DNA of 52,244 nucleotides from a virus, in IMG/VR virus record IMGVR_UViG_3300044210_000063, one strand, 5' to 3'. A program made the translations under genes and the position numbers. This document shows, one piece after another, positions 22,696 to 50,965 of the stretch. Each line of letters starts with the position of its first letter. The stretch's first letter is position 1. The notes beneath the pieces are model-generated. The model ran no database searches, was not told the origin of the DNA, and saw only the letters and a list, made by a program, of their open reading frames with translations.

Positions 22696-24150
22696 TTGGG
22701 TTTGGTGTATTATCAAAATACAATAGTGAGATTTGAGACTGGTTCACCGTATCATGGTTTCGTATACCAGGGGCCTCCGATAGACATAGGTCCGAGGGCT
22801 ATGCGGAAACTGCTATTCAGATGCCAGTGTGGCAAGGATAAGGAACTATATATCGGGGCAATTACCAAGGGAATGCAAAAAACATGCGGGGACTGCCGGA
22901 AGGTATGGGTGCGTCCGGGTGATCAATATCACCGGTTCATTTATGCAGGAGAAGCCTCATATCTGGCTCCCAACAGCTCTAAAAAGGCATTGTTCAAATG
23001 CCAATGCGGCAAGGTCAAATCAATCAGAATAAACAGTGTTACTAAAGAGCAAACTACCAGATGCGGCGCGTGCAACTTAGTGAAGCTTGATCCGGAGGAT
23101 CAATATTATTCTTTTGTCTATATAGGAGAACCAATACGAGTTCACGCGCATGGTACTTCTCGGCTGATGTTTCGGTGTCGATGCGGTAAGACTGTCACAT
23201 TGCGTATGAACGAGGTGACTTCTGGCCATCGAGTTTCGTGCGGGCACTGCAATGATTTTGTGCTGGACTATGGTGATAAATATTGTGGGTTCGTGTATGC
23301 GGGCAAACGAATTATAGTTTCGCCACGTAGCCACCAGCAACTCGATTTCAGGTGTAAATGCGGCACTATCAAGAAGATCAAGCTATGGGAGATATCTGAC
23401 GGAATAACTCGCACTTGCGGTCGTTGTAGCTATATTCAGTTGGATCCAGGCCAGTCATACTGTGGGTTCGTATATATCGGAAAACCAATCTGGCTCAGTA
23501 AATGGAGCCACCAACGGCTTTTGTTCCGGTGTAAATGTGGACAGCCCAAAAGCATCATGTTGTCGAGTTTGACGTCCGGCAATACAAAGACATGCGGTGC
23601 ATGTCGTGGAACAGTATATGAATGGTATGTTAAGAATCGTGAAATGTTGGAAGCTATGCGTGCTCCAATTACTTTGGATAGTCTGCCTCAAGGTGGAGTA
23701 ATATTCACTTCACCTATTACGAACATCGCTAAATCTACGCCTGCAATCTGTCCGGCATGCGGTGCATCTTACAAGCCAAGATTTAGCGATGTTCGTCGTG
23801 GACGATCACTGACTTGTGGGTGTGTATATAATAGAATATCATCCTATAACTATGAGATTGCTAGTCTTGTAGCTTCAGTCGGGTTCAGAGTCATGATGGA
23901 GTTTAAGCTTGGCAAGTATTCATATGATATACATGTGGAAGAGACCCCCATCCTTATTGAATATGATGGAAAGAAATGGCATGATACGCAATATGCTGCC
24001 GATCTTGATCTGCGCAAGTCAAAATTGGCAGCTGAGCATGGATATGAATTGATTCGGATTACAGAGGCTGATTGGCGGGACCATCCCGCAGAAACACAGA
24101 CTCATATTTTAAAGGTACTGTCACAGTATGCTGCTCCAACAACTGGATGA
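22696..24150 (+). CDS. paralog A of a mobile-looking family: 5 tandem Cys4 zinc-ribbon modules + Zn-ribbon + Vsr/DUF559-like PD-(D/E)xK endonuclease domain
   Basis: Five ~60-aa repeats F(R/K)CxCG-x12-VT(S/K)G-x3-(T/S)CGxC-...-FVY(A/I)G. Then CPACG...LTCGC and YDIHVEETPILIEYDGKKWHD...DLRKSKL...GYELIRI. Its 3' end overlaps the polA start by 23 nt. Confidence 0.8.
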   Translation: MGLVYYQNTIVRFETGSPYHGFVYQGPPIDIGPRAMRKLLFRCQCGKDKELYIGAITKGMQKTCGDCRKVWVRPGDQYHRFIYAGEASYLAPNSSKKALFKCQCGKVKSIRINSVTKEQTTRCGACNLVKLDPEDQYYSFVYIGEPIRVHAHGTSRLMFRCRCGKTVTLRMNEVTSGHRVSCGHCNDFVLDYGDKYCGFVYAGKRIIVSPRSHQQLDFRCKCGTIKKIKLWEISDGITRTCGRCSYIQLDPGQSYCGFVYIGKPIWLSKWSHQRLLFRCKCGQPKSIMLSSLTSGNTKTCGACRGTVYEWYVKNREMLEAMRAPITLDSLPQGGVIFTSPITNIAKSTPAICPACGASYKPRFSDVRRGRSLTCGCVYNRISSYNYEIASLVASVGFRVMMEFKLGKYSYDIHVEETPILIEYDGKKWHDTQYAADLDLRKSKLAAEHGYELIRITEADWRDHPAETQTHILKVLSQYAAPTTG

Positions 24151-26989
24151 CCGTAAGGACATCATCCGAGATTGGATGGTGGATTATAAATTCCACCTAG
24201 TTCAGACCGTTCTTCAGCTGAAGAAGCTGGTGGATTATTGCATACAACGAGGACTTTATGCCCTCGATCTCGAGACTACTGGAGTTGACAATCGAGTCTA
24301 CCAAGACGAATATTTTGAAGACGGTATCATAACTCGTCATGGTATAAGGACCATTGATAGAGTGGTTGGGGTCTGTCTATCATTCGACGGGACAAATGGA
24401 TATTATGTCCCGCTTTCTCATGAACCGGACGATTCTGGAAATTTGCCATGGGATGAATCTTGGGATGAGATCCAGAGGTTGGTGTGGAGCCAAGCACGTG
24501 CAATCTTCCATAATGCTAAGTTTGACTGCGAGTTCCTTTACCCTCTGACAAATAAGGACTTCTGGAAGAAGAATGAATATGAGGATACCTATCTTATGTC
24601 TAAGGTATCCTCACCGCTTAAAAGCCAGCCCAACGGTCTTAAGCCTCTATCCAAATTGCACTTCGGCATTGATATGATTGAGTTAGACGATCTTTTCTGT
24701 CCGGAGATGAAGATCCAACTCAAGCGTGAGAAGCAAGGATATAACTTTGGAGTACTTCATCCGCGAGAAGGTCTTGAATATGGGTGCTCAGACGGTATTT
24801 TTACTTATAAGTTATATTCAGTCCTGCGTGAAAAATTATCAGACACTGATCTACCTATTTACGATTTAGAAAAATCTTTCTGCAACATATTGCGTAAGTT
24901 AGAACGTAACCAGGTGCATGTTGATGTGGAGCGCCTAAATCAACTTGAGGTTGAGTGTCGCGCGGAATTGCAGCGTGTCGGTGATGTCATTCGTGGGATG
25001 ATTGAGAAGCGTAGTCATAACACTGGTAAATGGCTGACGCTCAATGTTGGATCTGTTCAGCAGTTATCATCAGCACTTATTACAGATCCTGAGGGTCTGA
25101 AGCTCAAGCCGACAGCAGAGATGATCGCAGAGGCAGGAGGAACTGGCGAATGGGATAGCGGCGGCGGTGGTGGTGGTGGTGGTGACGATGACGATGAAGA
25201 TGGGGATGAGGAGGAGAAAAAGAAATACTCGTTGAAAGATGAAGCTCTGAAATCTTTGCATCGAGCATATGCTGATCGTCTATCGGTGCAACGCCCTGGT
25301 GTTGTAGACAAAGATGGAAAACCAAAGCTAGATAGTCTTTTTGAACTCGTACTTGAATACCGACATTACGAGAAGATGCTCGGGTCGTTTTTAACAAAGT
25401 TATCGCGAGCTGTAGATCGGTATGGGAATGTACGACCAAATTTCAACCAAATGGGGACAGATACCGCGAGACTCTCGTCAAGGGCTGGCAAGATTGAGGA
25501 TGGATATTCTGGTATCAATTTTCAAGGAATCCCACGGGATTCCGATGAGGATAAACCAGAATTATTCAAGCAAATCAGGACGGTAATAATTCCGCGCGAT
25601 GGTTGGATACTGGTAAAGCTTGACTTCGCTGGCGAGGAACTTCGTGTTGTTACTAATCTTTCGGGTGATCCGATCTGGACAGATTCATTCTTGAACAAAG
25701 ATGGTGACGTGCATTCAATTACAGCACGTACACTGTTCGGCAAGGATGAAGTTAATAAAGACGAGCGTAATCGCGGTAAACGCTGCAATTTCGCGTTTAT
25801 TTATGGTGGGGGTGCAGGCGCGATTCAGCGCAACGTTGGTTGTTCCATTGAAGACGCCGGTAGGCACATGGAGAATCTGCGACAGGCTGTACCCGTGCTA
25901 ATGGGGTATGTTGATCATCAGAAGAGATTCGCGCATAAACATAAGTGCATTTTTACAGCTTATGGTCGGCGTGTTCCCATTCCAATGATAGATTCGCCAA
26001 TACGCGCCTTGCGTTCTAAGGCGGAGCGGTGCGCTATTAATTACACAATCCAGTCAACCTCTGCAGACGTCTTGAAATACGCAATGTGTTTTGTTGATAA
26101 GAACATCCGGGCTCTAGGCTGGGAGGACCGGGTTCGATATGTGCTAACCGTACATGATGAGGTTGTATATGAGGTTCGACCGGAATACCTCATGGAGATT
26201 GTACGTAAGCTTGATGAATGGATGACCTTTCCATGGAAGCTTCCGAAGCCACATGGCCGCGACTGGGTGGTGCCGCTTCTCACCGAGCCCGGGATTGATT
26301 GTAACTGGAAGGCTCGCTATGACTATTTCGAGATGGTGGACGGCACGCCAGTGAAGCCATCGGAGATTGGCCCAGATGGGGAGTACAAGGGTAAGCTCAA
26401 GAAGGGCCGCTACTTTGCCGATGGGCGCATCTACCAGGAGCCTCCGGACTTCCTGAAGCCGTGGATCCACCGCCTTCGGCCCCTTTCGGCCGGTCCTGAG
26501 CCTGCTCTTCCGTCCCATGAATCGCTTCCGGCTGAGCCCGGAGCCGCTGTCTTGCCTGATTTGCCGCCTTCCAAACCCGCAGAACACGGCTCATCTGGTC
26601 CGATCGATGAAGCCCCGCTCAGTAAACTCTTGCCAGCGGAGCCTATCCTTGGCTCCCTGAGCACTCTGTCGCTCTCCACGGATCCGCCCCCGCCGCTCCC
26701 CCCGCCGCTCCCCCCGCCGCTCCCCCCGCCGGCCTCTCCGCAGCCAAAAAAGGTGCAGGACAATGCCGTTACGAATACTTCGGGTGAGACCGTCTTACGC
26801 TGGACCATCCGGTCCGTGCTGAACGACATGGCGATTCGCAAGCTCAAGGCCGCGTGCCTGTTAGCACCGGGCAACATGTCGTTGCGCGTGGTACTGCCCG
26901 ATGGTAGCGTCCTCATTCAGGAGAAGAGCATGCCGTTGGTCGACAAGGATTGCTTTCTCTCGTATGCACGCTTATTGGGTATCGGGTGA
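24128..26989 (+). CDS. polA: family-A DNA polymerase with N-terminal 3'-5' proofreading exonuclease, acidic/poly-Gly insertion and Pro-rich C-terminal extension
   Basis: Exo I YALDLETTG. Motif B RGKRCNFAFIYGGGAGAI. Motif C LTVHDEVVYEV. Insertion DSGGGGGGGGDDDDEDGDEEEKKK. About 270 aa follow motif C, including (PPLP)x3. Confidence 0.9.
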   Translation: MLLQQLDDRKDIIRDWMVDYKFHLVQTVLQLKKLVDYCIQRGLYALDLETTGVDNRVYQDEYFEDGIITRHGIRTIDRVVGVCLSFDGTNGYYVPLSHEPDDSGNLPWDESWDEIQRLVWSQARAIFHNAKFDCEFLYPLTNKDFWKKNEYEDTYLMSKVSSPLKSQPNGLKPLSKLHFGIDMIELDDLFCPEMKIQLKREKQGYNFGVLHPREGLEYGCSDGIFTYKLYSVLREKLSDTDLPIYDLEKSFCNILRKLERNQVHVDVERLNQLEVECRAELQRVGDVIRGMIEKRSHNTGKWLTLNVGSVQQLSSALITDPEGLKLKPTAEMIAEAGGTGEWDSGGGGGGGGDDDDEDGDEEEKKKYSLKDEALKSLHRAYADRLSVQRPGVVDKDGKPKLDSLFELVLEYRHYEKMLGSFLTKLSRAVDRYGNVRPNFNQMGTDTARLSSRAGKIEDGYSGINFQGIPRDSDEDKPELFKQIRTVIIPRDGWILVKLDFAGEELRVVTNLSGDPIWTDSFLNKDGDVHSITARTLFGKDEVNKDERNRGKRCNFAFIYGGGAGAIQRNVGCSIEDAGRHMENLRQAVPVLMGYVDHQKRFAHKHKCIFTAYGRRVPIPMIDSPIRALRSKAERCAINYTIQSTSADVLKYAMCFVDKNIRALGWEDRVRYVLTVHDEVVYEVRPEYLMEIVRKLDEWMTFPWKLPKPHGRDWVVPLLTEPGIDCNWKARYDYFEMVDGTPVKPSEIGPDGEYKGKLKKGRYFADGRIYQEPPDFLKPWIHRLRPLSAGPEPALPSHESLPAEPGAAVLPDLPPSKPAEHGSSGPIDEAPLSKLLPAEPILGSLSTLSLSTDPPPPLPPPLPPPLPPPASPQPKKVQDNAVTNTSGETVLRWTIRSVLNDMAIRKLKAACLLAPGNMSLRVVLPDGSVLIQEKSMPLVDKDCFLSYARLLGIG
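26690..26725 (+). repeat. 12-bp x3 repeat CCGCCGCTCCCC encoding (PPLP)3 in the polA C-terminal extension
   Basis: Seen directly, in frame. Confidence 0.8.
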
Positions 26990-28767
26990 AGCTGTTCGTT
27001 GTTAAAGGGGATAGGGCAGGGAGCCTGACATATGCGGGTGACAGGTCGGAGCTTAGCACGTGCAGCCTTAAGAAAGACCTGTTCCGGTGCGCATGCGGCA
27101 CGGTGAAACTTTTCCGTACTGCATATGCATACTCTGGCAGGAGCAAGACTTGCGGCGAGTGCCATGCACGGCCCGCCGAATGGTGGGATCGCAAGTTCGG
27201 CAGTCTCAGGCTGGCTGTTCCAGTCAAACTTCACGAGTTTTCAAACAAAAGAAAAGATTTTCGGTGCGACTGCGGCAGAGTATTGGCGCTCAGAGTAAGC
27301 CATGTTACGTCCGGACTGCAGCGGACGTGCGGCTGCTGCCAGCTCATGGGAGCGTCTTGGTGGGAAGCCAGCGTCTTCGGCCAGCTCCGGTTGGCTGTTC
27401 CTGAGGATTTGCACGTTGGGTCCAATCAAAAGAAACAATTCCTCTGCAGTTGCGGGCGAGTCAAACGGCTGCCGGTATATGCAGTGGTCGCGGGCCGCGT
27501 GAAGACCTGCGGCGAGTGTAATGTGAAACCCGCCGAATGGTGGAAAGGCAGAGTATTCGGTCGCCTATCAATAAACCAGCCCGAGCCACTGACTTTTGGA
27601 TCCCATGAACGCCGCATGTTCCAGTGCGGCTGCGGGAATCAGTGCATAGCACGGGTGAACTTGGTTACAAGCGGCAAAAAGCTGTCCTGCGGGAGGTGTC
27701 GGGACCAGGTGCATGGTTGGTACCAAGACAACCTTTCCAAGTTGGCTGCTATGCGGTTCCCCATAGCTCCGCAGGACATGCCGATCGGCGGTCCGAGGCC
27801 GCTGGAAACGATTTTAAACAGAAGGAGCCCGTTCCGGGCTGTGTGCCCCATATGTCAGTCCGAGTATGCGCCTCGGTGGGAGTTTATCAAGAGAGGAATA
27901 TCACTTACATGTGGATGTGCTGGCGGGGTCTCGTCGACCCAGAATCGGGAGGTGGCCGGGTTCATCCGTCAGCTTGGGGTTGATCTAGTTACGGAATATC
28001 CGGTCGGGAACAAGCGGTTCGACATATTCGTGCCGTCCTGCAATCTATTGATTGAGTTGCAAGGGTTGCACTGGCATTCCCAGATCGGAGCGCGGCAGCG
28101 AGACCGAGAGAAGTATGGGGTGGCTGTACAGGCTGGGTATCAGTTCATGGCCTTCTTTGAAGATGAGTGGAGACATGCGCCGGAGAAGGTGAAGGCTTTG
28201 ATTCACAACCGGCTGGGTTTAGTTCACAGCATCAAGCTGCGTCCCCCTCAGTGCGGGATCCACCCGGTCCCCTCACCGGAGGCCGATCCCTTTTACGACA
28301 GGTTCCACTACATAGGGCCCTGCAGGCCCAAGGTCTCCTATGGGGCTTTTCTCCGGGATCGCCTGGTGGCTTGTATCTCCTTCTCCCACCCGACCAGGCA
28401 GTCCAGGCACCCATGGGAATTGGTAAGGATGGCTTCAGATCCGGAGTATAGGGTCCATGGGATCTGGAGCAAGCTTCTGAAGATTTTCTGCACTGAGTAC
28501 AGACCGGAATCCATAGTCTCGTTCTCGGATAACCGCCTTTTTTCAGGTGGAGTCTATGAAAGAATAGGCTTCTCCTACGATGGGGACGTTCCTCCGGATT
28601 ACTACTGGGTGAAGGGACAACGCAGGTTCCACAAGTCCGGCCTCAGGAAGAAGGGAGAGGAGAGGGTTTCCGGGCTCACCGAGGCCCAGCTCAGAGAAGC
28701 TCAGGGGTACCGGAAGATATGGGACCTTGGGAAGAAGAGATGGGTTTTTCGTTGGGCTGACGATTAG
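26950..28767 (+). CDS. paralog B: 4 zinc-ribbon modules + Vsr-like nuclease + C-terminal GNAT-like domain
   Basis: Repeats FRCACG...TCGEC etc. RFDIFVPSCNLLIELQGLHWHS. C-terminus LVRMASDPEYRVHGIWSKLL...FSDNRLFSGGVYERIGF resembles GNAT motifs A/B. The whole gene is GC-rich relative to the background. Start uncertain; the ORF-track TTG overlaps polA by 40 nt. Confidence 0.8.
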   Translation: MLSLVCTLIGYRVKLFVVKGDRAGSLTYAGDRSELSTCSLKKDLFRCACGTVKLFRTAYAYSGRSKTCGECHARPAEWWDRKFGSLRLAVPVKLHEFSNKRKDFRCDCGRVLALRVSHVTSGLQRTCGCCQLMGASWWEASVFGQLRLAVPEDLHVGSNQKKQFLCSCGRVKRLPVYAVVAGRVKTCGECNVKPAEWWKGRVFGRLSINQPEPLTFGSHERRMFQCGCGNQCIARVNLVTSGKKLSCGRCRDQVHGWYQDNLSKLAAMRFPIAPQDMPIGGPRPLETILNRRSPFRAVCPICQSEYAPRWEFIKRGISLTCGCAGGVSSTQNREVAGFIRQLGVDLVTEYPVGNKRFDIFVPSCNLLIELQGLHWHSQIGARQRDREKYGVAVQAGYQFMAFFEDEWRHAPEKVKALIHNRLGLVHSIKLRPPQCGIHPVPSPEADPFYDRFHYIGPCRPKVSYGAFLRDRLVACISFSHPTRQSRHPWELVRMASDPEYRVHGIWSKLLKIFCTEYRPESIVSFSDNRLFSGGVYERIGFSYDGDVPPDYYWVKGQRRFHKSGLRKKGEERVSGLTEAQLREAQGYRKIWDLGKKRWVFRWADD

Positions 28768-29763: not shown

Positions 29764-30110
29764 TTCAATGTGATTTCCCAGAATGTGAAGCTGAGGCTGA
29801 CTGTATGTTGATTTTACATACTCCAGCTGGAATATACCCAACTGGAGTATACCCAGCTGGAGTATGCCCAGCTGGGTATTCAGCATCTTCAAATAGACAA
29901 ATAACGCGGGCAATAGCTCGACATACGGAATCTTGGCTTCCACACGAGATCATATTTGTTCGCTGTGTTGCTCATGAAAACCCAATACTTCCGGGAACAC
30001 CGCTAACTAAAGCTCTGACATCAATACCCTTCCACCTTAGTAAATTGACTCTTGCTATGGGAATGAAAATTTACGGGACCCAATTGGCTAAGGAGGTTCA
30101 TGACACCTGA
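29760..30110 (+). CDS. hypothetical protein with PAG(I/V)YP tandem repeat
   Basis: ATGA overlap with dcd; 15-bp x4 in-frame repeat at 29823-29882. Confidence 0.5.
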   Translation: MIQCDFPECEAEADCMLILHTPAGIYPTGVYPAGVCPAGYSASSNRQITRAIARHTESWLPHEIIFVRCVAHENPILPGTPLTKALTSIPFHLSKLTLAMGMKIYGTQLAKEVHDT

Positions 30111-30642
30111 TCCAGAACCGATGGACGTTGCACGGTTCTTTGAATACGGCGAAGTCTCGTTTACGGATCGAGACTTTCCAAGCCGGCAGGCATCCATTCA
30201 TATTTGCATACCATGTTGTCTATTTCAGGCTGTTACTCCAGCTTTACTTGGTGCCGGTATTATTGATGAATTCTATATACGGGATCCTCTAGCCGTTTGG
30301 ATGCCAAAGCTAGCACCTGAACGTGTCCGCGGAGTAGACTCCGGAATGGTTAATACAACGATTCATCATCATGCTGAGACTTCTCTTGAAATTTTTCGAT
30401 TGTTATCTCACCATGTTAATAACGTGGCGGATTTGGTCCCACTATTGCCGCTTGGTATATACATAGCTCTGAGGTTTCGTTGTCGTATTGACGACATACC
30501 GAAAGTATTATTCGCAATCCAGGGTATACCGGTAGATGGAGTCCATGAGTTCCAATGGGCTTTGGCCTCTGTACTGGCCTGTGTGCTTCAGGATTTTCAG
30601 ATGTGGGAGAGTTTCATGCCTCAGCTGCCATCGAGACTATGA
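30100..30642 (+). CDS. hypothetical protein (180 aa)
   Basis: ORF overlapping the previous by 11 nt; hydrophobic segment near the N-terminus. Confidence 0.5.
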   Translation: MTPDPEPMDVARFFEYGEVSFTDRDFPSRQASIHICIPCCLFQAVTPALLGAGIIDEFYIRDPLAVWMPKLAPERVRGVDSGMVNTTIHHHAETSLEIFRLLSHHVNNVADLVPLLPLGIYIALRFRCRIDDIPKVLFAIQGIPVDGVHEFQWALASVLACVLQDFQMWESFMPQLPSRL

Positions 30643-31447
30643 CATCAATGGTATACCAGCGTTGCTTTGAATCTTGGCACAACTTTGGGGTCCTGATCTC
30701 GCATCTGTGCACCCCGATAGCCGCGATTTTACGTGCCAGCAATGCTCCAAAGAGTGCATGTCTGTGGCATGCTAGATTTGGGGATTGAAATACGCCATCA
30801 ACTTGCTCACGCCCAACTTCGATCGCTATAGTTTGGCCTTCTGAACACGGCTCTACAGTAATACCGTGTGCTGCCAGGCATTCTGTGGCAATTGTCACGA
30901 TTGAGGATGGATCACGTATGTGCTCATATGCTGGTCCTCCTCGAATTAGGGCAATCCTGGTCCGTTCTTTCTCCTGATTAAGAAGCGCCAAGGCGGAACT
31001 AATTCCAGGATGCAAAATGGGTTGGGATTTATGTATCTGACCGTCTTCTCCTATGAAATCAGTAGGGCGGAATACGGACTGATCAGTAAGAGGAAGTACA
31101 GCAAGGCCTGTGCTTTGGTCTACAATGTATACTTTAGAGCCGGTTGATACTAATTTATCATGCTCTTCCAGGATAACATCTACTGCTGTTTCATACACAT
31201 CTTCTGTTCCTGGATAGACAATATCAATACAAGCCTCGATTAACTGTTGGCGACGTTGATCACCTTTAGTCAATGCTGCCTGAGCAGCATCATTCTCTGT
31301 CAACATACGACGAATGGCAAGAAGATAATCTCGTTGCACTCGTTTTTCAGCTTCATAGGCAGTGTCAGAATCTCCGACCACACGTGCTCCAACGAGGATA
31401 GACTGAGGAGTATCCTCGTTGGAGCACGTGAGAATTTTAGTATTCAT
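30614..31447 (-). CDS. hypothetical protein (277 aa); vague resemblance to two-Cys racemase/isomerase-like folds, not assignable
   Basis: Long clean ORF; ATGA overlap with the upstream minus-strand gene. A 20-bp perfect inverted repeat lies in codons 2-18. Confidence 0.6.
   Translation of the reverse strand: MNTKILTCSNEDTPQSILVGARVVGDSDTAYEAEKRVQRDYLLAIRRMLTENDAAQAALTKGDQRRQQLIEACIDIVYPGTEDVYETAVDVILEEHDKLVSTGSKVYIVDQSTGLAVLPLTDQSVFRPTDFIGEDGQIHKSQPILHPGISSALALLNQEKERTRIALIRGGPAYEHIRDPSSIVTIATECLAAHGITVEPCSEGQTIAIEVGREQVDGVFQSPNLACHRHALFGALLARKIAAIGVHRCEIRTPKLCQDSKQRWYTIDVIVSMAAEA
31381..31430. repeat. perfect 20-bp inverted repeat with 10-nt spacer (CACGTGCTCCAACGAGGATA-GACTGAGGAG-TATCCTCGTTGGAGCACGTG)
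   Basis: Seen directly. Both strands therefore encode a TCSNED..SILVGAR peptide. Lies 15 nt inside the 5' end of gene 30614..31447(-). Confidence 0.85.
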
Positions 31448-31953
31448 TTGCTATCTCCGAATGTATAGCTGCTGCCTGGTTCGAGTACGACCTCTCCCTG
31501 AGGGAGCACCATGCCTTGTGTGAATGGAGTGTTTGCGAGGCTAGGTGTAGGCCGAGGATCTTGGGTTTGTATGACTGATCCGAGTTCTTGCTGTGGAGTC
31601 GGAGTGATCAAAGTCGGAGTGATCAAAGTCGGAGTGATCAAAGTCGACTTTGATGGAGATTGCATTTCAGCTGGTCTTTGTGCACTAGATAGAAACCGTT
31701 TGGCCCGGATAGCATCGTATGCAGGGTCTGTTTCTGCAGCTCGAGGCGGAGCATCAAAAAGATCTTTCCGCCATGTGGCCAATCTTTGCTGCAATGCACT
31801 ATTTTGTCCAGCAGCTCGTGAGCAATCCGCTCGTAGACATCTTAAACAATATGCTTTGGAGAACTCATCTAATGGGACCGTTTTGTGCTGCCCAATTAGA
31901 GCAGGATCCGATATGCAATCTTTCAGATAATCAACGCTAGCCATTGTTTGCAC
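31444..31953 (-). CDS. hypothetical protein with (TLITP)x3 repeat
   Basis: 15-bp x3 tandem repeat at 31594-31648, in frame. Confidence 0.5.
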   Translation of the reverse strand: MQTMASVDYLKDCISDPALIGQHKTVPLDEFSKAYCLRCLRADCSRAAGQNSALQQRLATWRKDLFDAPPRAAETDPAYDAIRAKRFLSSAQRPAEMQSPSKSTLITPTLITPTLITPTPQQELGSVIQTQDPRPTPSLANTPFTQGMVLPQGEVVLEPGSSYTFGDSK

Positions 31954-33870: not shown

Positions 33871-33878
33871 GGCTGTAA

Positions 33879-34598
33879 TTATACGGCCTGTGCAGTGTTT
33901 GTGTCATTCTCCACTCTTTGAAGAAGACGCTCAGCTTCCTCATCTGCAGTGTCATTAGACTGCAGCAATCTGGAATATATAGCTCCAGCACCATCGCCAG
34001 TCTTAGAAATTTCGCCTTTACCAACTGCCTTATCAAGAAGGTTATATAGAGATTGCCTGGACCATACGGAGAAGCCATCTTTGGTGGCAATTTCCGTTGC
34101 AACATGATAAATAGCAGCTGCGGTCTTATCGCCAGTTTCCAGCGCTTGGTTAATCACTTGACGCAACTCGGGACGGTTGCTTGTCTTTTTGGTTTCTGGC
34201 TTTACCTTTATAGTCTTCTTTTCTGGCTTTTCTGATTCCGGTTTTTCTTTTGGGGCTACGGATTTAGCTGGCTTTGTAGCCGGTTTTGTAGCTGGTTTCA
34301 ATACTGCTCTTGAAACTGCGGGTTTTACCTCAGGCTGTAGAGCCGCATTCGAAATCCCCATCAGTAGTGTTTGGGTTCGGGCTGCTGATCTTTGAATATC
34401 AGTAACCTTAGCATTTATTTGATCTCGAAGTCGCAAGAAACTTGCGACATTATTGTCGATGCCTCGTAGCAACTTACCAGCTTGCGCAGTAGCATTGCGA
34501 ATCTCGGTTTTTGTTTTGGTTTCGATTTTTTCGATTTTTTTGGGCGCCAACGTCGCTGGCGGTTTTGATGTTTTGATTTGTGCTTTAGGAGTTGACAT
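33879..34598 (-). CDS. basic K/P/A-rich protein with C-terminal linker-histone H1/H5-like winged-helix (H15-like) domain
   Basis: Tail PATKPATKPAKSVAPKEKPESEKPEKK. Domain ...AAAIYHVATEIATKDGFSVWSRQSLYNLLDKAVGKGEISKTGDGAGAIYSRL parallels H1 globular ...[24 protein letters not shown]. Confidence 0.5.
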   Translation of the reverse strand: MSTPKAQIKTSKPPATLAPKKIEKIETKTKTEIRNATAQAGKLLRGIDNNVASFLRLRDQINAKVTDIQRSAARTQTLLMGISNAALQPEVKPAVSRAVLKPATKPATKPAKSVAPKEKPESEKPEKKTIKVKPETKKTSNRPELRQVINQALETGDKTAAAIYHVATEIATKDGFSVWSRQSLYNLLDKAVGKGEISKTGDGAGAIYSRLLQSNDTADEEAERLLQRVENDTNTAQAV

Positions 34599-35043: not shown

Positions 35044-35372
35044 CTCCGGACGATGCCTGGCGTATTTTAGGCGTAGTTCCAGCTAGTGTATACGCCCGGA
35101 TCATTGACCGGCCGCGACATGAACGAGCAGTTGCAGCTGAGGAAGAACTCATTGAAGCTAGACGACTTGCTAGACAGCTTCAAGGCAGATGCCATCCTGA
35201 TAGAAGTAAAGATGGAGATGAGAAACGATTCAGGGAAATTAGTGAAGCACTTGAGACGCTTGTTCACGCAACAGAGAACTTCAAGATAAGATTAGCGGAA
35301 GTCATTTCTGAAGAAGAGAGTGCAATCGCACGCAAGAGCCGAACCGCGGTTTTTATTAGGATGGAAAAATGA
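35040..35372 (+). CDS. small J-domain protein (DnaJ-like co-chaperone, J-domain only)
   Basis: DAWRILGVVPAS...HPDRSKDGDEKRFREISEALETL has the J-domain HPD and helix pattern. Confidence 0.7.
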   Translation: MTPDDAWRILGVVPASVYARIIDRPRHERAVAAEEELIEARRLARQLQGRCHPDRSKDGDEKRFREISEALETLVHATENFKIRLAEVISEEESAIARKSRTAVFIRMEK

Positions 35373-36151
35373 TGCGTCTCATCTCTTGCATTCAGTATCG
35401 TCCGCGCTTGGCTCGCTGCCGAGCGGATGTTGGAGACAATCTGCGCCGAGCGACCCCGCTCTTAGATCAGGCAGCACGAATTGGATCTCATTTGATTGTG
35501 CTACCAGAATTATGCTTTACGGGGTATTCTTTTCTTGAACGCAATGAGGTGGCTCAGATTGCGGAACGATTTGATGGTCCTACCTTTCTGGCTATGCGCT
35601 CGATTGCCATACAAGCCATGGCTTATGTGAGTTGGGGTTATCCCGAAGTAGACGAGAACGGTAGTCTATACAACTCTGGTAGTGTGGTGGCTCCGAATGG
35701 CGACCTTGTGACTCGATATCGCAAGATCAATTTATGGGGAAATGATTTCTTTTGGGCCATATCTGGAACAGAGGCTGCACCAATTGTACAAACCGACATA
35801 GGTTTACTATCCTTGATCATTTGCAGAGATCTACGTGACAAGATTCCAGCAAATATCCCACGATTTGGATCCGAGGCTGGTAAGAGACACTATGAAGGTC
35901 GTCGTGTGGACGTGGTAGCAGCAAGTACGGACTGGGGTAAGGGAGGTTTTCCAGCAAATGCTTGGATGGACTTTGCTGCCGACAACCGATGCATCCTAGC
36001 TGTTGCAAATAGATGGGGAGAGGAGAAGAATGCTTCTTTCATCCAGGATTTCGGACAGGGCGGAAGTATTATTATCGAACCTAATTGGAAGGTTCATATT
36101 GGTGGATTGGAATTTGGTGCTAATTGCGTAGTATCTGCTCATATAGTATAA
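35369..36151 (+). CDS. carbon-nitrogen hydrolase (nitrilase superfamily)
   Basis: E-K-C triad context: VLPELCFTGY, RYRKINLW, ICRDL. Confidence 0.75.
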   Translation: MMRLISCIQYRPRLARCRADVGDNLRRATPLLDQAARIGSHLIVLPELCFTGYSFLERNEVAQIAERFDGPTFLAMRSIAIQAMAYVSWGYPEVDENGSLYNSGSVVAPNGDLVTRYRKINLWGNDFFWAISGTEAAPIVQTDIGLLSLIICRDLRDKIPANIPRFGSEAGKRHYEGRRVDVVAASTDWGKGGFPANAWMDFAADNRCILAVANRWGEEKNASFIQDFGQGGSIIIEPNWKVHIGGLEFGANCVVSAHIV

Positions 36152-36160
36152 TCGTAGTGC

Positions 36161-36203
36161 TGTGTATCATTGTTTTCAATATAATTAAAAACAATGATAC
36201 ACA
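36161..36203 (+). terminator. terminator-like hairpin after the CN hydrolase gene
   Basis: TGTGTATCATTGTTTT-CAATATAATTAA-AAACAATGATACACA. Perfect ~15-bp arms, AT-rich loop, no clear U-tract. Confidence 0.35.
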
Positions 36204-36294
36204 GCAAGTACTGATTCTACAGAACAAAATTGCGCCAATTCAATTTTGGCCAATATCACACCAATTTGTTAGGCGTCTATTTGTTTATTCATGT

Positions 36295-36722: not shown

Positions 36723-36968
36723 CTATTTTCTGTGAACGGTCTTGACTACTTCTTCACGAATACGCTCAAGACCAAGTATTTCCGGGAAAGATAGTGAATT
36801 GCTTTGGATGCCATTAGCATGTTGGATCACTAACTTGTCGCCGGGTGACAGTCCTAGGCGAGTAAGAAGCCGCGCAATCAGAACCTCTTCGTCGATATAA
36901 GGACTATCCCACGGAGTGAACTTCAACGATTCGTTGTGTTGATTGGCTTCTTGACTTGAAATTTTCAC
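36723..36968 (-). CDS. hypothetical protein (81 aa)
   Basis: ATGA-coupled downstream of paralog C. Confidence 0.45.
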   Translation of the reverse strand: MKISSQEANQHNESLKFTPWDSPYIDEEVLIARLLTRLGLSPGDKLVIQHANGIQSNSLSFPEILGLERIREEVVKTVHRK

Positions 36969-38563
36969 AGCTTTGAGTTTCTTTTTTGAAGGAGCCTTGT
37001 TACTAATGGGCCGCCATAATACCCAGCAAGGGCACGGGTTTCGACGATTTTAGCTTTTTCGCTAACTACCCTTATTAAATCAATATCAGTGGTGTAGGCC
37101 AGAATAACAGCGTAAATCAAGCTATCGGCGATTTCGGACTCAATGGCGGCTTTCTTCGCTTCAACCGTGTCACCGTTCCGAATGGCTCGCAGTAGTGCAC
37201 CAGCAAGTTCGCCCGATTCACCGACGAGGCCTAAGGCATAATAAATGAATGGGTCGTTACCATATGCCGCGTCAGGATCCATATTTTTGACTCGACATAT
37301 AACATGGTGCGCATTGATAGCTGCAGTAACAATATCTTCGTAGGAGTGTCTTAGTTCGTGGATTAAGGCATCTCGCCGCTTTATTAATGCTGCCTCGGTT
37401 TCTTCTGGCAGGCTGATTTGCATGATTTCGCTGATTTCATCCAGTTTTGCCCTGAGTTCTGCCTTAGTTCGATAGCTTCGGCCGATTCGTTTTCGTGTGT
37501 CTAGCTCCAACAGGAGGCTCTGCATAACGCTTTTTTTATTATGTATCCAGTCGTTTTCCTCTATGGTGAGGAATTTCAGCCCACTCACTTCGGCCAAGAA
37601 CCGCTTCTTAGTGTTCCGCCTTCGCGCGTCGTTGGACCGGTTGAACTCGATAAGCGTTTGAGACTCGTTGACGAACATGTCATATTTATGTCCGTAGAGC
37701 TTGTGCTCAAATACCACTGAGTAGCCATGCGCAATAAGCTGGTCAGCGATGCGATAGCATGGTATGGGTATTTGGTAATCCGCACAGCCGCACGTCAGCC
37801 CATGGCCTCCTTTGAGCCTGCTGATGGACGGTGTGTAAATACTACCACAAATAGGACATTTTGCCTTGAATCCCTTTGAATTTGTTAATATGCGTCCGAG
37901 CGGAATTGGTCCACCGGGAGGGAAGTTTTTGGGCTCAACTGGTGCCCGTAACGCCTGCAGCGCTTGCCGATTCTTATTATACCAATTTCGCACTGTTCGA
38001 GAGCAATGTCCACAATTGCGGGTACGTCCGGAGGTCACTGACTGAATCGATATTTCTTTCTTGCTGCCGCAGTCACACAGAAACATCGTCTTTTGTTTAG
38101 CGTGGCGATTGAGAGCACGGGGTGTTTCCAGCCGAAGGCATCCAAACCGCTGACTAGTCCACCATTCTGGATCCATCTCGTTGCATCTGCCGCATGTCAC
38201 AATTTTGTTGTGTACTACGTCGTAGATGGCTATTAGTTGCTCTTTACCACAATCACAAACAAACAGTTCTCTATCTTTACTGCCAGTACTTAACTGTTTC
38301 GGATGCCTGAGTCGCAGTTGACCGAACTTCTGTGTGATCCACCACTCCTTTGGCATTATACTGCATTGTCCACATGACTTGGTTTGGCCACGGGTGACAG
38401 ACGACACTTGCACGGTTTTATGCTTGCCACATTCGCAGACAAACACATGCTTTGCATGCGAATGTGGATTTAAATCCACTGGATGCAAAATGCGCAGCTT
38501 GCCAAACTTCTGTAGCGCCCACCACTCCTTGGAGTGAACTGTAGCACGCTCTCTAATAGTCAT
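36965..38563 (-). CDS. paralog C: 3 zinc-ribbon modules + Vsr-like nuclease + C-terminal MazG-like NTP pyrophosphohydrolase domain
   Basis: Repeats FVCECGKHKT...SCGQC etc. YDMFVNESQTLIEFNRSNDARRR. C-terminus ALGLVGESGELAGAL...ESEIADSLIYAVILAY is MazG-like and replaces the GNAT-like domain of paralogs B, D and E. Confidence 0.8.
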   Translation of the reverse strand: MTIRERATVHSKEWWALQKFGKLRILHPVDLNPHSHAKHVFVCECGKHKTVQVSSVTRGQTKSCGQCSIMPKEWWITQKFGQLRLRHPKQLSTGSKDRELFVCDCGKEQLIAIYDVVHNKIVTCGRCNEMDPEWWTSQRFGCLRLETPRALNRHAKQKTMFLCDCGSKKEISIQSVTSGRTRNCGHCSRTVRNWYNKNRQALQALRAPVEPKNFPPGGPIPLGRILTNSKGFKAKCPICGSIYTPSISRLKGGHGLTCGCADYQIPIPCYRIADQLIAHGYSVVFEHKLYGHKYDMFVNESQTLIEFNRSNDARRRNTKKRFLAEVSGLKFLTIEENDWIHNKKSVMQSLLLELDTRKRIGRSYRTKAELRAKLDEISEIMQISLPEETEAALIKRRDALIHELRHSYEDIVTAAINAHHVICRVKNMDPDAAYGNDPFIYYALGLVGESGELAGALLRAIRNGDTVEAKKAAIESEIADSLIYAVILAYTTDIDLIRVVSEKAKIVETRALAGYYGGPLVTRLLQKRNSKL

Positions 38564-40060: not shown

Positions 40061-40786
40061 TTGATAGACCGTACCCGTGTGACCATCACCCTTACGTTCC
40101 AGATTCCGTCCACAAACGTGCATCCGGTTGCCGCAGTGATGGACCTTACTGATGACCGGCCTTTGATTGGTTTGAGTCCTCCGCAGGTCGATGGTCTTGA
40201 CCTGCGGGAAGACGATCTAGTACTTAGGATCGTGCCTGATCAGATTGAGACGGGACCGTGGGTAGCTCATGCGGGTTTATGGACTCGTCCTGACTGGTTT
40301 AATGCCAGCGCTTATGCGGAAGGAACGATTCTCACCTGTAATCGTGGCACCAAATACCGCGGATCGGCATGGGCTATGCGGGGGACTATTCCCGGTCTTG
40401 ATATTGTGGGCACTGATTTCTTATGTGCCGATCCATTCTCAGGTCCTACAGGTCCAACAGGACCTCAGGGGTATCCGGGGACTACTGGAGGTGTAACTGG
40501 ATCAACGGGGCCACAGGGTGCCACTGGATTACAAGGAGATCCAGGTGTTACAGGTGCCACTGGACCACAAGGTGCCACTGGACCACAAGGTGCCACTGGA
40601 CCACAAGGTGCCACTGGACCACAAGGTGCCACTGGACCACAAGGTGCCACGAGCATATTACCGAGTGGAAGCGCTGGCGCTATTCTTTACAATGATGGTT
40701 CACAGTGGATTATACTGCCCTCTGGGGCTTCTGGAGCTGTACTCACCGCTCAGGGGGCCACGGGGCCAATTTGGGCGTTCTTGTAG
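40061..40786 (+). CDS. collagen-like triple-helix repeat protein (putative fiber)
   Basis: [29 protein letters not shown]...(GATGPQ)x5, Gly-X-Y over about 80 aa. 18-bp x5.5 DNA repeat at 40553-40651. Confidence 0.8.
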
Positions 40787-45827: not shown

Positions 45828-47177
45828 TTATTCAATTAGTTCCAAATTGGAACTAAGGGATGATTCGTCTATCCCCATGGTTTCTGCTGGAACTACTTCG
45901 GGCGGTTCTGAAGAACCATAATCCTGATCCATAGCATCGTCTGTGTTTCCACCTGCGACGGACATGGCATCTTCAGCCAGCTCGGCTAACTCTTCATCGC
46001 TTATATAGCGCAGCCCCTTAAGAATGTGTTCGACGCATAGATTACTGAGCTCTGCATATACTTTCGGCTGTGCTACCATGGCAGCTCGGAACTTCTCAAT
46101 GCCGATGGTTTCGATTTCTCCGGCACTGGAATGGAACCGAAATATATCTTGTTTCTTAGCATTCTTACTTTTCTTCACAATGTCGTATGCGATGGCTACG
46201 TTTAGCATTGTACGTAGCTCATCAATACCCACCCCATAGCGAATTGTGATAAGCCCAGAATGCCCGGTGCGTGCATCAATTTTATTTTTAATATTTTTGA
46301 TTTCCACATCCGTAGCAATCGGCACTTCTTCGTAATCTCTAGTGAGCGGGTTCCACCGTTTGGCTTTAACAGTCTGTTTTGGCTTCAACAAGACACGGTT
46401 CGATGACCAGAACTTCAGCGCGTTGCCGCCAGTAGTCGTCTTAAGGGCCTCTTCACTGAACCCAATAGCCCCAATTTTATCACGTGTTTGATTAAGAAAC
46501 ATCACGTGAGTACCGGTGTTCGATATGATGGATTGGAGCTTCGGCATCCAATTGGACATGAACCGTGGAACCTCAGCAATGCCTTGTTTTTCCTTCTCAT
46601 TCAAGACATTGCGTTCCCCTTCCCTCTTTGGTTGCAGACCTGCGACTGAATCGATTACTATAAAATTTATGCCTTGGATCGCCGCAGCATTCACGATTGC
46701 CTCGACTTCTTCGGCAAATCTAGGTGCTACACGGATAGCTCGTCCAGTTCCACCAAGTTCTGGTGGACGAAAGTCCGCTCCGAGTCGCATCGCATAAGCA
46801 TCAACAACTGCATGCTCGAGGTCAACGTATAATCCGGTTCCAGTTTCATTATTTGCTTGGAGTGCATGTCCAAGACCCATAAGCGCGATAGTAGATTTGC
46901 CTGAAGACTCACGGCCATAAATCTCGCTGATACGCCCGCACGGCCATCCGGGGCAGACGAATGATCCATCATCAAGCCTTGTTCCGCCGATGAGGAGATT
47001 TAGTACAGTCGAGCCAGTATTAATATACCCCAGGTTGCGATTCCATTCGACAACCGTATCCCGTAGGTTCAGGCGTTTCTCCAGGGTTGTTAGGAACCCT
47101 GCCATCTTCGGATGCCACTTGATTGGAGTGCTTTTTGACATGATTGATACTACACCAGACCCATCTCGTCTTTCCAA
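45828..47177 (-). CDS. recA: RecA/UvsX-like recombinase (divergent)
   Basis: GRISEIYGRESSGKSTIALM (compare GRIVEIYGPESSGKTTL), FIVIDSVAGL, TTGGNALKFWSS, NKIDARTG. The annotated 5' end overlaps paralog D by ~157 nt; the true start is probably an internal Met (47141 or 47105). Confidence 0.85.
   Translation of the reverse strand: MERRDGSGVVSIMSKSTPIKWHPKMAGFLTTLEKRLNLRDTVVEWNRNLGYINTGSTVLNLLIGGTRLDDGSFVCPGWPCGRISEIYGRESSGKSTIALMGLGHALQANNETGTGLYVDLEHAVVDAYAMRLGADFRPPELGGTGRAIRVAPRFAEEVEAIVNAAAIQGINFIVIDSVAGLQPKREGERNVLNEKEKQGIAEVPRFMSNWMPKLQSIISNTGTHVMFLNQTRDKIGAIGFSEEALKTTTGGNALKFWSSNRVLLKPKQTVKAKRWNPLTRDYEEVPIATDVEIKNIKNKIDARTGHSGLITIRYGVGIDELRTMLNVAIAYDIVKKSKNAKKQDIFRFHSSAGEIETIGIEKFRAAMVAQPKVYAELSNLCVEHILKGLRYISDEELAELAEDAMSVAGGNTDDAMDQDYGSSEPPEVVPAETMGIDESSLSSNLELIE
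45836..45856. promoter_or_regulatory. perfect palindrome TTAGTTCCAA-A-TTGGAACTAA (10-bp arms, 1-nt centre) at the recA 3' end, upstream of the ATPase gene
   Basis: Seen directly. The 1-nt spacer rules out a stable hairpin, so a dimeric protein-binding site is more likely. Confidence 0.35.
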
Positions 47178-48723
47178 AGTCCCATATTTTCCGATATCCC
47201 TGAGCTTCCCGCAACTCCCTCTCCGTCATACCTGATGCTTTTTCAGTATTCTTCTTCCGCAGAGACGACTTATGAAATCGCTTTCCTTGCTTCACCCAGT
47301 AATAATCGGGTAGAACTTGTCCATCACGTTGGAATCCCATCAAGCCGTAAACGGACCCTGTATATAATCTATTATCAGAGAAACTGACGATTGAGTACGG
47401 GGAGTGCTCTTGGATGAATATGTGAAGAAGCTTCGACCAGATACCATGTACTCGGTATGCTGGATTAGAGGTCATGCGCACTAATTCCCACTGATGCCTT
47501 GACTGTCTTGTAGGATGCGATAGGGACAGACAGGCGATCATAGATCCATTGAACAACACAGAATAGGATATTGTGGGTCGGCATGGTCCAATGTAATGGA
47601 ATTCCGCATGGAACCGGTCAGCTGTTGCAAAATCGACTGATTTAATGGAACACATGGTAGGACGCAGCTTGATGTGTTTGCTGCGACCGAGCCGATTACA
47701 TAATAGCGCCTCCACCTTTGTTCTACTGTGACGCCATTCATCCTCAAAGAGAGCGATGAACTCATATCCACTAGCAACAGCAGCTTTATACTTCCTGAGG
47801 TCTCTATCCCGTGAGTCTCTCGATGAGTGCCACCGTAGCCCGTTGAATTCTATGACTATGCATAAGCTCGGTATACCTATATCATATTTCCATTCTCCTA
47901 TGCTGTGTTCAAACACAGCTTGGATTCCAAGTGATGTGATAAACTCAATTAGTTGGTGCACCGGAGCTGACGTTTTATGACTAGTGCATCCGCAGGTGAG
48001 TGAGACTCCTCGTCTAATATTTTTCAGCAAAGGCTTGTATTCGAGCCCGCATAGTAGGCAACGTGCGCGAAATGGAACTGACAAACCAATAATGGGTTCC
48101 AGCGGCAGCATTGCGCCTGGCACGAAGTCGGTCGGGACAATCGGACATTTAAGCGCCATTAGTTCGTTGCGATGGCGCTCATACCACTGATATATATGAT
48201 CCCAGCATTTGCCACAAGAAGCAGTATTTCCCGTTGATACGGAATAGACGGCGGCATCTGTTTCATTACCACAGGTGCACACCCAGGTCAGTTTTTGGTG
48301 TGACTGCGGGAGTATCTTTTGCGGTCGTTTTATGTGCAGGTGCCCAAAGACCTTGTCTGTTGGATCAAATTCGCTGCATTTGCCACATGATGTCGTACGA
48401 CCTTGCACCACGGATTCGATCCTGGCCGTGGTTGTGTGTCCACATTCGCATACCCACCTGACGCGTTTACTCGACCCAGGCAGCGTATCAATAGGCATGC
48501 ACTGGCGGAGTTTTCCGAACCTACGAGTCGCCATTTCTGCTGCCGAAATCGTGCTACATTTACCGCACGATTTCGTATGGCCGGACAACACCTTGCGCAC
48601 CTCTGCCTGGCAAGTGCGTCCACATTCGCATGCCCAGATGACTTTGCGCCCTGATCCCTGGGTAACCTCCAGTATTTCTGTGCTGTGCAGACTACCAAAT
48701 CGGTCTTCTGGCACGACGATCAT
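47020..48723 (-). CDS. paralog D: 3 zinc-ribbon modules + Vsr-like nuclease + GNAT-like domain
   Basis: WACECGRTCQ...SCGKC repeats. KYDIGIPSLCIVIEFNGLRWHS. C-terminus LVRMTSNPAYRVHGIWSKLL...YGLMGF. Confidence 0.8.
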   Translation of the reverse strand: MIVVPEDRFGSLHSTEILEVTQGSGRKVIWACECGRTCQAEVRKVLSGHTKSCGKCSTISAAEMATRRFGKLRQCMPIDTLPGSSKRVRWVCECGHTTTARIESVVQGRTTSCGKCSEFDPTDKVFGHLHIKRPQKILPQSHQKLTWVCTCGNETDAAVYSVSTGNTASCGKCWDHIYQWYERHRNELMALKCPIVPTDFVPGAMLPLEPIIGLSVPFRARCLLCGLEYKPLLKNIRRGVSLTCGCTSHKTSAPVHQLIEFITSLGIQAVFEHSIGEWKYDIGIPSLCIVIEFNGLRWHSSRDSRDRDLRKYKAAVASGYEFIALFEDEWRHSRTKVEALLCNRLGRSKHIKLRPTMCSIKSVDFATADRFHAEFHYIGPCRPTISYSVLFNGSMIACLSLSHPTRQSRHQWELVRMTSNPAYRVHGIWSKLLHIFIQEHSPYSIVSFSDNRLYTGSVYGLMGFQRDGQVLPDYYWVKQGKRFHKSSLRKKNTEKASGMTERELREAQGYRKIWDFGKTRWVWCSINHVKKHSNQVASEDGRVPNNPGETPEPTGYGCRMESQPGVY

Positions 48724-50068: not shown

Positions 50069-50965
50069 CTAATCGAGCAGTGTTTCGTATCCGGCCGTGA
50101 GCTTTGGCCTGTCCTGAGCATCCTGACTATTATTTACACCAATTTGCGGTGCTCCAAGACGCTCAATAAGCTTGTCCATCGGCATGTCGAAGCCGAGACT
50201 GTTTTGCACGTACTTCCAGTTACGTGCACCAAGTTCGAGAATCCAGTTACGTACTTCTGGACTAGATCCCTCGAGTGCCCAATGTGAAGCGGATGCCAGC
50301 TGGATTTCTTGTTTTTGATACTTCGGATCGCCATCCAAAGTAACACGCAAGTCGATTGTAGACCGACCGTCATTGCGTGCGTCGAGATAAACCGCCTCAA
50401 GCTTACGAAACTTTTGGGAACCAAGCTTCCAGATATATGGTGCCGTATACTTCTGCATTTTTAGCAATTCCATGTCGACCTGTCCATCCGGCGTGACTGG
50501 GTATTGCAAGATGACGGTTGCCACGGTCTGCATTGCGTCACCCATTTCTTTGCAACAAATACTCGGTTTTACTAATACACCGTTTTCCCAAGTGCCCTTG
50601 CATCGAATGGTGCCGATGCCTTCCTTATAATGAGTATAGCCGAAGGCAAACTTCGGCTGCTTAATATCTAGCCGATCCACATCTGTGAGCTGATCCAGAG
50701 GTTTTTTGAGTCTCTCGGATAGTTTAGCTTCGACCTGATCTGACCAATCGGCTTTTTCTTGATCAGTGAGCGGCCGTCCAGCCTTTTTAGTCTGAGCCGC
50801 CAAAACAATATCAATATATTTCTTGAAAGCAATCAGACATACTCTGTCTGATTGCTTATGGTGGCTCTGTTTATATACTTCACATCCAGCCGCTTTAATA
50901 ACCTTGGCGTCGTCAAATCCAAACTCAGTAATCTCACTCATTTGTGACCTCGTTGTGCTTCGCAC
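50069..50965 (-). CDS. hypothetical protein (298 aa)
   Basis: Clean ORF, no recognised domain. Confidence 0.5.
   Translation of the reverse strand: MRSTTRSQMSEITEFGFDDAKVIKAAGCEVYKQSHHKQSDRVCLIAFKKYIDIVLAAQTKKAGRPLTDQEKADWSDQVEAKLSERLKKPLDQLTDVDRLDIKQPKFAFGYTHYKEGIGTIRCKGTWENGVLVKPSICCKEMGDAMQTVATVILQYPVTPDGQVDMELLKMQKYTAPYIWKLGSQKFRKLEAVYLDARNDGRSTIDLRVTLDGDPKYQKQEIQLASASHWALEGSSPEVRNWILELGARNWKYVQNSLGFDMPMDKLIERLGAPQIGVNNSQDAQDRPKLTAGYETLLD

Follow-up and report, generated by a model that had tools for sequence, protein, structure and literature searches.

How does a phage gene come to carry a perfect 20-bp palindrome within its first codons, and does the resulting mRNA hairpin influence its expression? 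This question is raised by a 52,244-bp metagenomic phage contig (IMG/VR record IMGVR_UViG_3300044210_000063), whose whole length is referred to here as the window. Within it, a gene on the minus strand (30614..31447) encoding a protein of 277 amino acids (aa) contains an inverted repeat at 31381-31430. The repeat is real, far beyond chance, single-copy, and known only from this genome. Our favored explanation, which we give an even chance of being correct, is that a template-switch (quasi-palindrome extension) mutation created the palindrome specifically in this lineage and that it is not a conserved device.

A perfect, single-copy inverted repeat at the start of the 277-aa gene

A repeat search returned two fully complementary arms (31381-31400 and 31411-31430; 20/20 Watson-Crick pairs) with the sequence CACGTGCTCCAACGAGGATA, separated by a 10-nt spacer, in agreement with the initial annotation of a perfect 20-bp inverted repeat with a 10-nt loop. 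The predicted hairpin has neither G-U pairs (0/20) nor mismatches (0/20), and the positions flanking the stem are noncomplementary, so that both ends have abrupt edges. The stem spans nucleotides 18 to 67 of the coding sequence (CDS), i.e., codons 6-23 and not codons 2-18 as first annotated, with its first base 17 nt past the A of the ATG. Across the element, the gene reads CTC ACG TGC TCC AAC GAG GAT ACT CCT CAG TCT ATC CTC GTT GGA GCA CGT GTG and encodes the peptide L T C S N E D T P Q S I L V G A R V. In the mRNA, the 5′ arm (CACGUGCUCCAACGAGGAUA; 31411..31430, minus strand) runs from the third base of codon 6 to the first base of codon 13 (L-T-C-S-N-E-D-T), the 10-nt loop (CUCCUCAGUC; 31401..31410, minus strand) covers codons 13-16 (T-P-Q-S), and the 3′ arm (UAUCCUCGUUGGAGCACGUG; 31381..31400, minus strand) extends from the third base of codon 16 to the first base of codon 23 (S-I-L-V-G-A-R-V). 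The 10-nt center of the repeat is asymmetric and nonpalindromic, and codon usage in the arms is in no way unusual.

Two further features had been pointed out for this site. CACGTG palindromes do occur at the outer end of each arm (outer 6 bp), but the motif is found 14 times in the window against 12.8 expected, and it was dropped as a meaningful signal because this frequency is at the chance level. Likewise, both DNA strands do encode the same peptide, the second copy belonging to a plus-strand open reading frame (ORF; 31247..31468), but this is a consequence of reading a palindrome in mirror-image frames and provides no independent evidence for the constraint on the amino acid sequence that had been deduced from it.

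Shuffles and Markov simulations ruled out a chance origin of the repeat. The longest perfect inverted repeat in 20 first-order Markov simulations of the window was 13 bp, and the analytic expectation for a 20-bp repeat is ~1e-6 (52244 x 21 / 4^20). The search for additional copies of the 20-mer that the initial annotation had recommended yielded none, either in the window at ≤3 mismatches, where shuffles expect 0, or as exact matches in three public collections (viral, genome, and metagenome). Near copies at ≤4 mismatches were also absent from the fetched relatives; over all 20 fetched loci, the closest matches (5-6 mismatches) lie in unrelated records. No 11-mer or 12-mer of the hairpin recurs elsewhere in the window, and its 9- to 10-mers occur at the chance level.

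Homologs keep the protein without the palindrome

We inspected the DNA of 14 homologous loci (L001-L004, L006, L007, L009-L013, and L015-L017). None of them (0/14) has a comparable repeat between positions −30 and +150 around the start codon, their best perfect repeats being 6-11 bp long and positioned elsewhere. In L001, the closest homolog with DNA (50% aa identity), the 20 equivalent positions yield 2 G-U pairs besides 5 Watson-Crick pairs, a number at the chance level. The homologs thus keep the protein and lack the palindrome, the very situation that the initial annotation had set against its own proposal, although the nearest of them is only 50% identical. At this distance, sequence comparison rules out an ancient family feature and leaves room for a young functional one. 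A conserved cis-regulatory RNA would be expected to keep its structure in homologs; the 14 loci are devoid of a hairpin in the 5′ region.

The protein alignment (P0001 versus the close homologs P0002 and P0003) is gapless over the whole hairpin and uncovered an asymmetry between the two arms. The residues ILVGAR encoded by the 3′ arm correspond to ILIGAR in P0002 (5/6 matches) and to MLLQAR in P0003, and they are part of the conserved motif SIL[VI]GAR and of helix 14-24 in the AlphaFold2 model of the protein. This model, built from a 30-sequence alignment (predicted local distance difference test [pLDDT] score of 90.4), has no secondary structure before residue 14, helix 14-24 being the first, and residues 1-8 are predicted to be disordered (pLDDT <50). 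In the outer 5′ arm, none of the residues T7-N10 (TCSN) matches either close homolog (0/4; KLDA and NMVH), and the T-C-S-N codons are the exact antisense of the V-G-A-R codons. The inner 7 bp of the stem pair the conserved E-D codons (GAGGAT) with the conserved I-L codons (ATCCTC). The loop proline is conserved in both P0002 and P0003, so the present orientation of the loop is probably ancestral.

An insertion or mobile element of the REP, MITE, or Rickettsia palindromic element (RPE) type was ruled out by the gapless alignment to P0002 and P0003 and by the single copy. The palindrome resembles RPEs and REP/MITE-like repeats in being translated within a protein. Those elements are multicopy insertions, whereas the present palindrome is single-copy and involves no insertion with respect to homologs.

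Predicted hairpin folding and its bearing on translation

RNA folding of the 5′ region, another check put forward in the initial annotation, predicted the very stable mRNA hairpin that had been anticipated. The 50-nt element alone reaches −36.9 kcal/mol as RNA and about −24.6 kcal/mol as a DNA hairpin, ranks second in stability among the 60-nt windows of the whole 52 kb, and gives z = −5.8 against dinucleotide shuffles when folded in a 161-nt context. A strong effect on translation initiation had been deduced from this stability; the folding models, however, do not predict that initiation would be strongly blocked. A Shine-Dalgarno-like GGAG, read from the sequence (31455..31458, minus strand), lies 7 nt upstream of the ATG at 31447, and both GGAG and AUG are unpaired in the minimum-free-energy fold. 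We compared the energies required to open the ribosome binding site (RBS) in the native transcript and in a synonymous variant that breaks the 5′ arm (ACA TGT AGT AAT GAA GAC at codons 7-12). Opening of the region −18..+13 costs 4.9 kcal/mol in the native and 5.6 kcal/mol in the stem-disrupted transcript, and the values remain close for −18..+16 (5.8 versus 5.7 kcal/mol). They diverge to 9.0 versus 7.6 kcal/mol for −18..+19 and to 22.8 versus 8.9 kcal/mol for −18..+25. The computed hairpin penalty thus arises only if the ribosome must open the mRNA beyond approximately +19. The toeprint of the 30S subunit is at about +15 to +17; the stem edge lies beyond it, and the hairpin would therefore be melted only during the first elongation steps. 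Slower early elongation or cleavage by a nuclease specific for double-stranded RNA (dsRNA) are conceivable effects on these models, and with 20 bp of uninterrupted predicted dsRNA the stem has the length of an RNase III substrate.

The statement that the hairpin is not a simple terminator held up. After the stem, the minus strand reads GUGGUCGGAGAUUCUG and the plus strand AGAAUUUUAGUAUU, with a U-tract on neither, and the hairpin is not among the terminators listed by a terminator scan, which rules out an intrinsic terminator in either direction. It shares with such terminators the location of a stem-loop shortly past a stop codon, but it lacks the U-tract, has a 10-nt loop, and is located within the following gene of its operon. 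Searches against Rfam gave no family match, only mir-like matches with an E value of ~0.1, far under the gathering score. A role as a stimulator of frameshifting or bypassing was also rejected, given a continuous frame, homologous residues through the hairpin, and no X XXY YYZ heptamer upstream. The bypass element of T4 gene 60 (a 50-nt gap with a stem-loop) is similar in that a structured stretch of 50 nt occurs near the start of a phage gene; in the present case, however, the frame is continuous, the residues are homologous to those of relatives, there is no stop codon and no take-off/landing pair, and the 50 nt are not a multiple of 3. Finally, a later start that would make the hairpin intercistronic was considered. 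The only candidate was codon 23, a GUG preceded by a GGAG at a distance of 3 nt; it was discarded because the homologous residues and the confident helix 14-24 come before this GUG.

Perfect inverted repeats in the window and in related phages

The window and other phages were surveyed for perfect inverted repeats, defined by arms measuring ≥10 bp and loops not exceeding 20 nt. The window has 16 of them, 13 inside long ORFs, against ~0.5 expected at random. The resulting density of 15.3 per 50 kb is 2-5 times that of T4 (8 in its first 50 kb), lambda (5.2 per 50 kb), or LR745208 (3 in 50 kb), and relatives of this phage reach 6.6-29 per 50 kb. Among the perfect repeats of the relatives are some of 13-20 bp with loops of 1-15 nt, part of which are intragenic. 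One of these, with 15-bp arms, sits elsewhere in the 277-aa gene family, at a conserved site (L011, 4246-4288), and another perfect repeat of 15 bp begins 5 nt past an ATG (L010, 960-997). A further perfect inverted repeat within an ORF of the window (50827-50857) belongs with these two in a group of 13-15 bp. The only other very long repeat in the window is AT-rich (36158-36206; 23-bp stem with one mismatch and a 3-nt loop) and begins 7 nt past the stop codon of a CN-hydrolase gene (35369..36151).

Four relatives have hairpins at syntenic intergenic positions, after the gene upstream of the CxxCxxCC cluster (L004, 1483-1525; L016, 7051-7083; L017, 7233-7275; and L015, ~7103-7138, the latter imperfect). 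Their stems are GC-rich, 12-15 bp long, and variable in sequence between relatives, the loops measure 9-15 nt, and none has a U-tract. Each hairpin is then followed by TAATGT or TATTGT, with a start codon 12-20 nt later. The matching place in the window (33878-33907) features a near-consensus promoter, GGCCGTATAAT, and no hairpin.

Template switching as a candidate origin of the palindrome

The series of events that we propose would start from a seed, i.e., a short pre-existing complementarity between the conserved E-D codons (GAGGAT-A) and the S-I-L codons (T-ATCCTC). During replication or repair, an intrastrand template switch would have allowed the nascent strand to fold back on this seed and to copy the reverse complement of the conserved helix-1 codons (ATC CTC GTT GGA GCA CGT G). 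The copy would have overwritten about four nonconserved codons of the disordered N-terminal tail (now T-C-S-N), leaving length and frame unchanged, and the protein would have tolerated this because the tail is unconstrained. The mRNA hairpin (+18 to +67, just 3′ of the footprint of the initiating ribosome) would be a by-product, whose likely effect is at most to slow the first elongation steps or to make the transcript sensitive to an RNase specific for double strands. What we infer here is that a template switch took place, in which direction the copying ran, and that the product is neutral.

Several observations argue for this origin. The contrast between a conserved, structured 3′ arm and an unconserved 5′ tail is consistent with one arm having been copied from the other, and the pairing of the E-D with the I-L codons in the inner stem offers a plausible pre-existing seed of 7 bp. 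All-Watson-Crick arms with abrupt edges are expected from copying of a DNA template, whereas selection at the RNA level in a coding region would tolerate G-U pairs. The excess of perfect repeats throughout the genome, the single copy, and the absence from homologs lend additional support, and we count the unchanged opening energy of the RBS on the same side. The mechanism is backed by published work. In noncoding regions of Escherichia coli, inverted repeats whose arms reach ≥13 bp are in ~150-fold excess, for which template switching has been proposed, and the excess of perfect repeats rises with arm length in a survey that covered arms of <20 bp (PMC5941160). Template switching forms perfect stems in one event (PMC8794818) and, in genes, rewrites up to five neighboring codons or amino acids (PMC8604942). 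The palindrome is similar to the template-switch repeats described in coding DNA of E. coli and yeast and as de novo RNA hairpins (PMC5941160, PMC8604942, PMC8794818) in its perfect arms, sharp ends, and lack of length change, and in its setting, a genome that is rich in perfect inverted repeats overall. A clustering of codon changes in one arm while the other keeps the conserved protein may be a further similarity, judged here at the protein level. It differs in that the ancestor is not observable here and in that arms of 20 bp exceed most of the reported coding-region events.

Arm length is also one of several points that weigh against this explanation, since 20 bp is long for reported template-switch events in coding DNA. 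At the nucleotide level, both arms are equally diverged from L001 (9/20 identical positions each), and L001 has no quasi-palindrome seed at the equivalent positions. No close relative is at hand, the nearest being 50% identical, so the ancestral sequence and the mutation cluster are not directly visible. The position of the hairpin, 13 nt past a stop codon at a translationally coupled junction and with the stem edge just outside the ribosome footprint, is suggestive of function. Purifying selection could likewise account for the 40 nt of uninterrupted arm sequence, and the syntenic intergenic hairpins without U-tracts look functional, so hairpins may be signals in this clade.

Alternative explanations

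These last points lead to the main alternative to the template-switch origin, one that we hold to be possible yet rather improbable, in which the mRNA hairpin was selected for a cis-acting role where two translationally coupled genes meet. It might serve as an RNase III-type site, as a 3′-end stabilizer or attenuator of the upstream cistron, or as an elongation gate lowering the output of the 277-aa protein. A very stable stem (−36.9 kcal/mol; z = −5.8) that starts 13 nt past the upstream stop and at +18 of the downstream gene, leaving Shine-Dalgarno sequence and AUG free, suits such functions, and substrates of bacterial RNase III need roughly 20 bp at minimum. The U-less hairpins of L004, L016, L017, and L015 are maybe clade signals, and the 15-bp perfect repeat of L010, 5 nt past an ATG, points in the same direction. 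Yet the hairpin is absent from 14/14 homologous loci despite conservation of the gene pair, has none of the G-U pairs or mismatches that RNA-level selection normally allows in coding sequence, matches no Rfam family, and does not affect the opening energy of the RBS. Phage RNase III hairpins are comparable in having a stable stem, in its length (about two helical turns), and in their location close to or at a cistron boundary of an operon. As a rule, the known sites (T7 R sites, lambda N-leader, sib, and cIII) lie between cistrons, have imperfect stems interrupted by internal loops, and are conserved among relatives, whereas the present stem is perfect, lies inside the downstream CDS, and is not conserved. 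We think it unlikely that the palindrome is a young functional "punctuation" mark of a jumbo-phage clade using long U-less hairpins (8-15-nt loops) as RNA-level signals. If it were one, the stem, lying just past the footprint of a ribosome that starts at the stop/start overlap, would gate early elongation or be cut by an RNase specific for double strands, and either action would set the stoichiometry of the conserved two-gene module beside the phage sigma-like factor.

The initial annotation had also suggested an operator or a recombinase site, which the searches do not favor, as they turned up neither additional half-sites in the window nor a second copy in any of the collections and loci covered. 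More generally, we regard as very unlikely a site acting at the DNA level, be it for binding of a symmetric protein, as a target of a recombinase or resolvase, or as a cruciform (e.g., at a start of recombination-dependent replication). Perfect Watson-Crick symmetry and a DNA hairpin of about −24.6 kcal/mol would fit such a function, the repeat is near the switch from plus-strand to minus-strand genes, and the window encodes a RecA/UvsX-like recombinase, a RuvC-like resolvase, and four HNH endonucleases. However, the 20-bp arms far exceed operator or recombinase half-sites, the 10-nt center is asymmetric, the element is not kept in syntenic relatives, and no integrase or protelomerase was found among the part of the ORFs that was scanned. 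Its intragenic position and the lack of a second copy or recurring half-site in the window are not what an operator of a dimeric regulator would look like, and the window offers a better operator- or iteron-like element at 29818-29879. Hardly any credence is given to an assembly or sequencing artifact, namely, a strand-switch chimera fixed in the consensus. The contig is indeed a metagenome assembly seen once, and no second sequence supports the palindrome; but the reading frame passes through it without a stop or a change in length, protein homology is found on both sides and inside (MxNxKL ... ED-P-SIL-GAR), and fold-back errors usually duplicate long stretches or contig ends instead of 20 nt in frame.

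Host gene, genomic neighborhood, and other repeats in the window

The palindrome-bearing gene (277 aa; 30614..31447, minus strand) is a member of a jumbo-phage family with 30 metagenomic homologs. The 169-aa gene upstream (31444..31953, minus strand) ends in a TGA that overlaps the ATG of the host gene (ATGA), the hairpin starting 13 nt past this stop codon, and the pair is kept in relatives. The 277-aa protein has no match in Pfam or PHROG, and its confident structural model matches no known fold. A single-sequence search retrieved five homologs with ≤50% identity, and a profile search retrieved the 30, all of them unannotated and metagenomic, some on contigs of 112-430 kb. Scanning viral contigs with the single protein gave no match; profile-based scans recovered relatives. 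The gene order conserved in jumbo-phage contigs comprises the CxxCxxCC protein gene, a small ORF, a divergent sigma-like gene, a 170- to 214-aa gene, the ~280-aa gene, a convergent overlapping 180- to 226-aa gene, the dCTP deaminase gene, and the gene for DNA polymerase A. The host gene belongs to a conserved replication-module block of jumbo phages. At their 3′ ends, the 277-aa gene and the convergent ORF 30100..30642 share 29 nt (30614-30642). Relatives have this convergent overlap as well, with a length of 59 nt in L001, of 29 nt in both L003 and the P0003 contig, and of 20-165 nt across L013-L017. The upstream 169-aa gene contains a perfect 15-bp tandem repeat of 3.3 copies (31597-31646) that encodes (LITPT)x3; its repeat unit also pairs as a 10-bp inverted repeat with 31645-31654.

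As a whole, the window has no nucleotide similarity to known phages, and its polymerase has its best match (34% identity) in an uncultured 485-kb phage. The replication genes encode a family-A DNA polymerase, a DnaB-like helicase, another helicase, and the RecA/UvsX-like recombinase and RuvC-like resolvase already mentioned; further genes encode a dCTP deaminase, a sigma-70-like factor, and the four HNH homing endonuclease-like proteins (ORFs at 22696-24150, 26950-28767, 36965-38563, and 47020-48723). One of the HNH ORFs directly follows the DNA polymerase gene, whose end it overlaps, within a stretch rich in GC (57% at 26-28 kb), and one is fused to a MazG-like domain. Approximately 55 nt past the stop codon of the dCTP deaminase gene (29763) begins an array of four tandem copies of the 15-bp unit ATACCCAGCTGGAGT, each nearly a 14-bp palindrome, ACTCCAGCTGGAGT (29818-29879). 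With −41.7 kcal/mol, the array folds more stably than any other 60-nt segment of the window, and it looks like an iteron or operator array. Tandem repeats also occur inside other ORFs. An 18-bp unit in 5.5 copies, nested in a 54-bp repeat (40511-40650, in ORF 40061..40786), encodes collagen-like Gly-X-Y (Pfam Collagen, E = 4e-8), and perfect tandem repeats are found at 26687-26731 (CCCCCGCCGCTC x 3.8) and 51088-51164 (a 33-bp unit x 2.3).

Implications

Whichever explanation holds, the 277-aa family, with its 30 members and its conserved neighborhood, is still uncharacterized. If the hairpin is functional, it would point to unstudied RNA-level control in an uncultivated clade of jumbo phages. 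If the template-switch origin is correct, a single mutation in a viral gene would have produced a 20-bp perfect hairpin together with several rewritten codons. The mechanism itself is not new; the case would then caution against inferring function or positive selection from striking palindromes.
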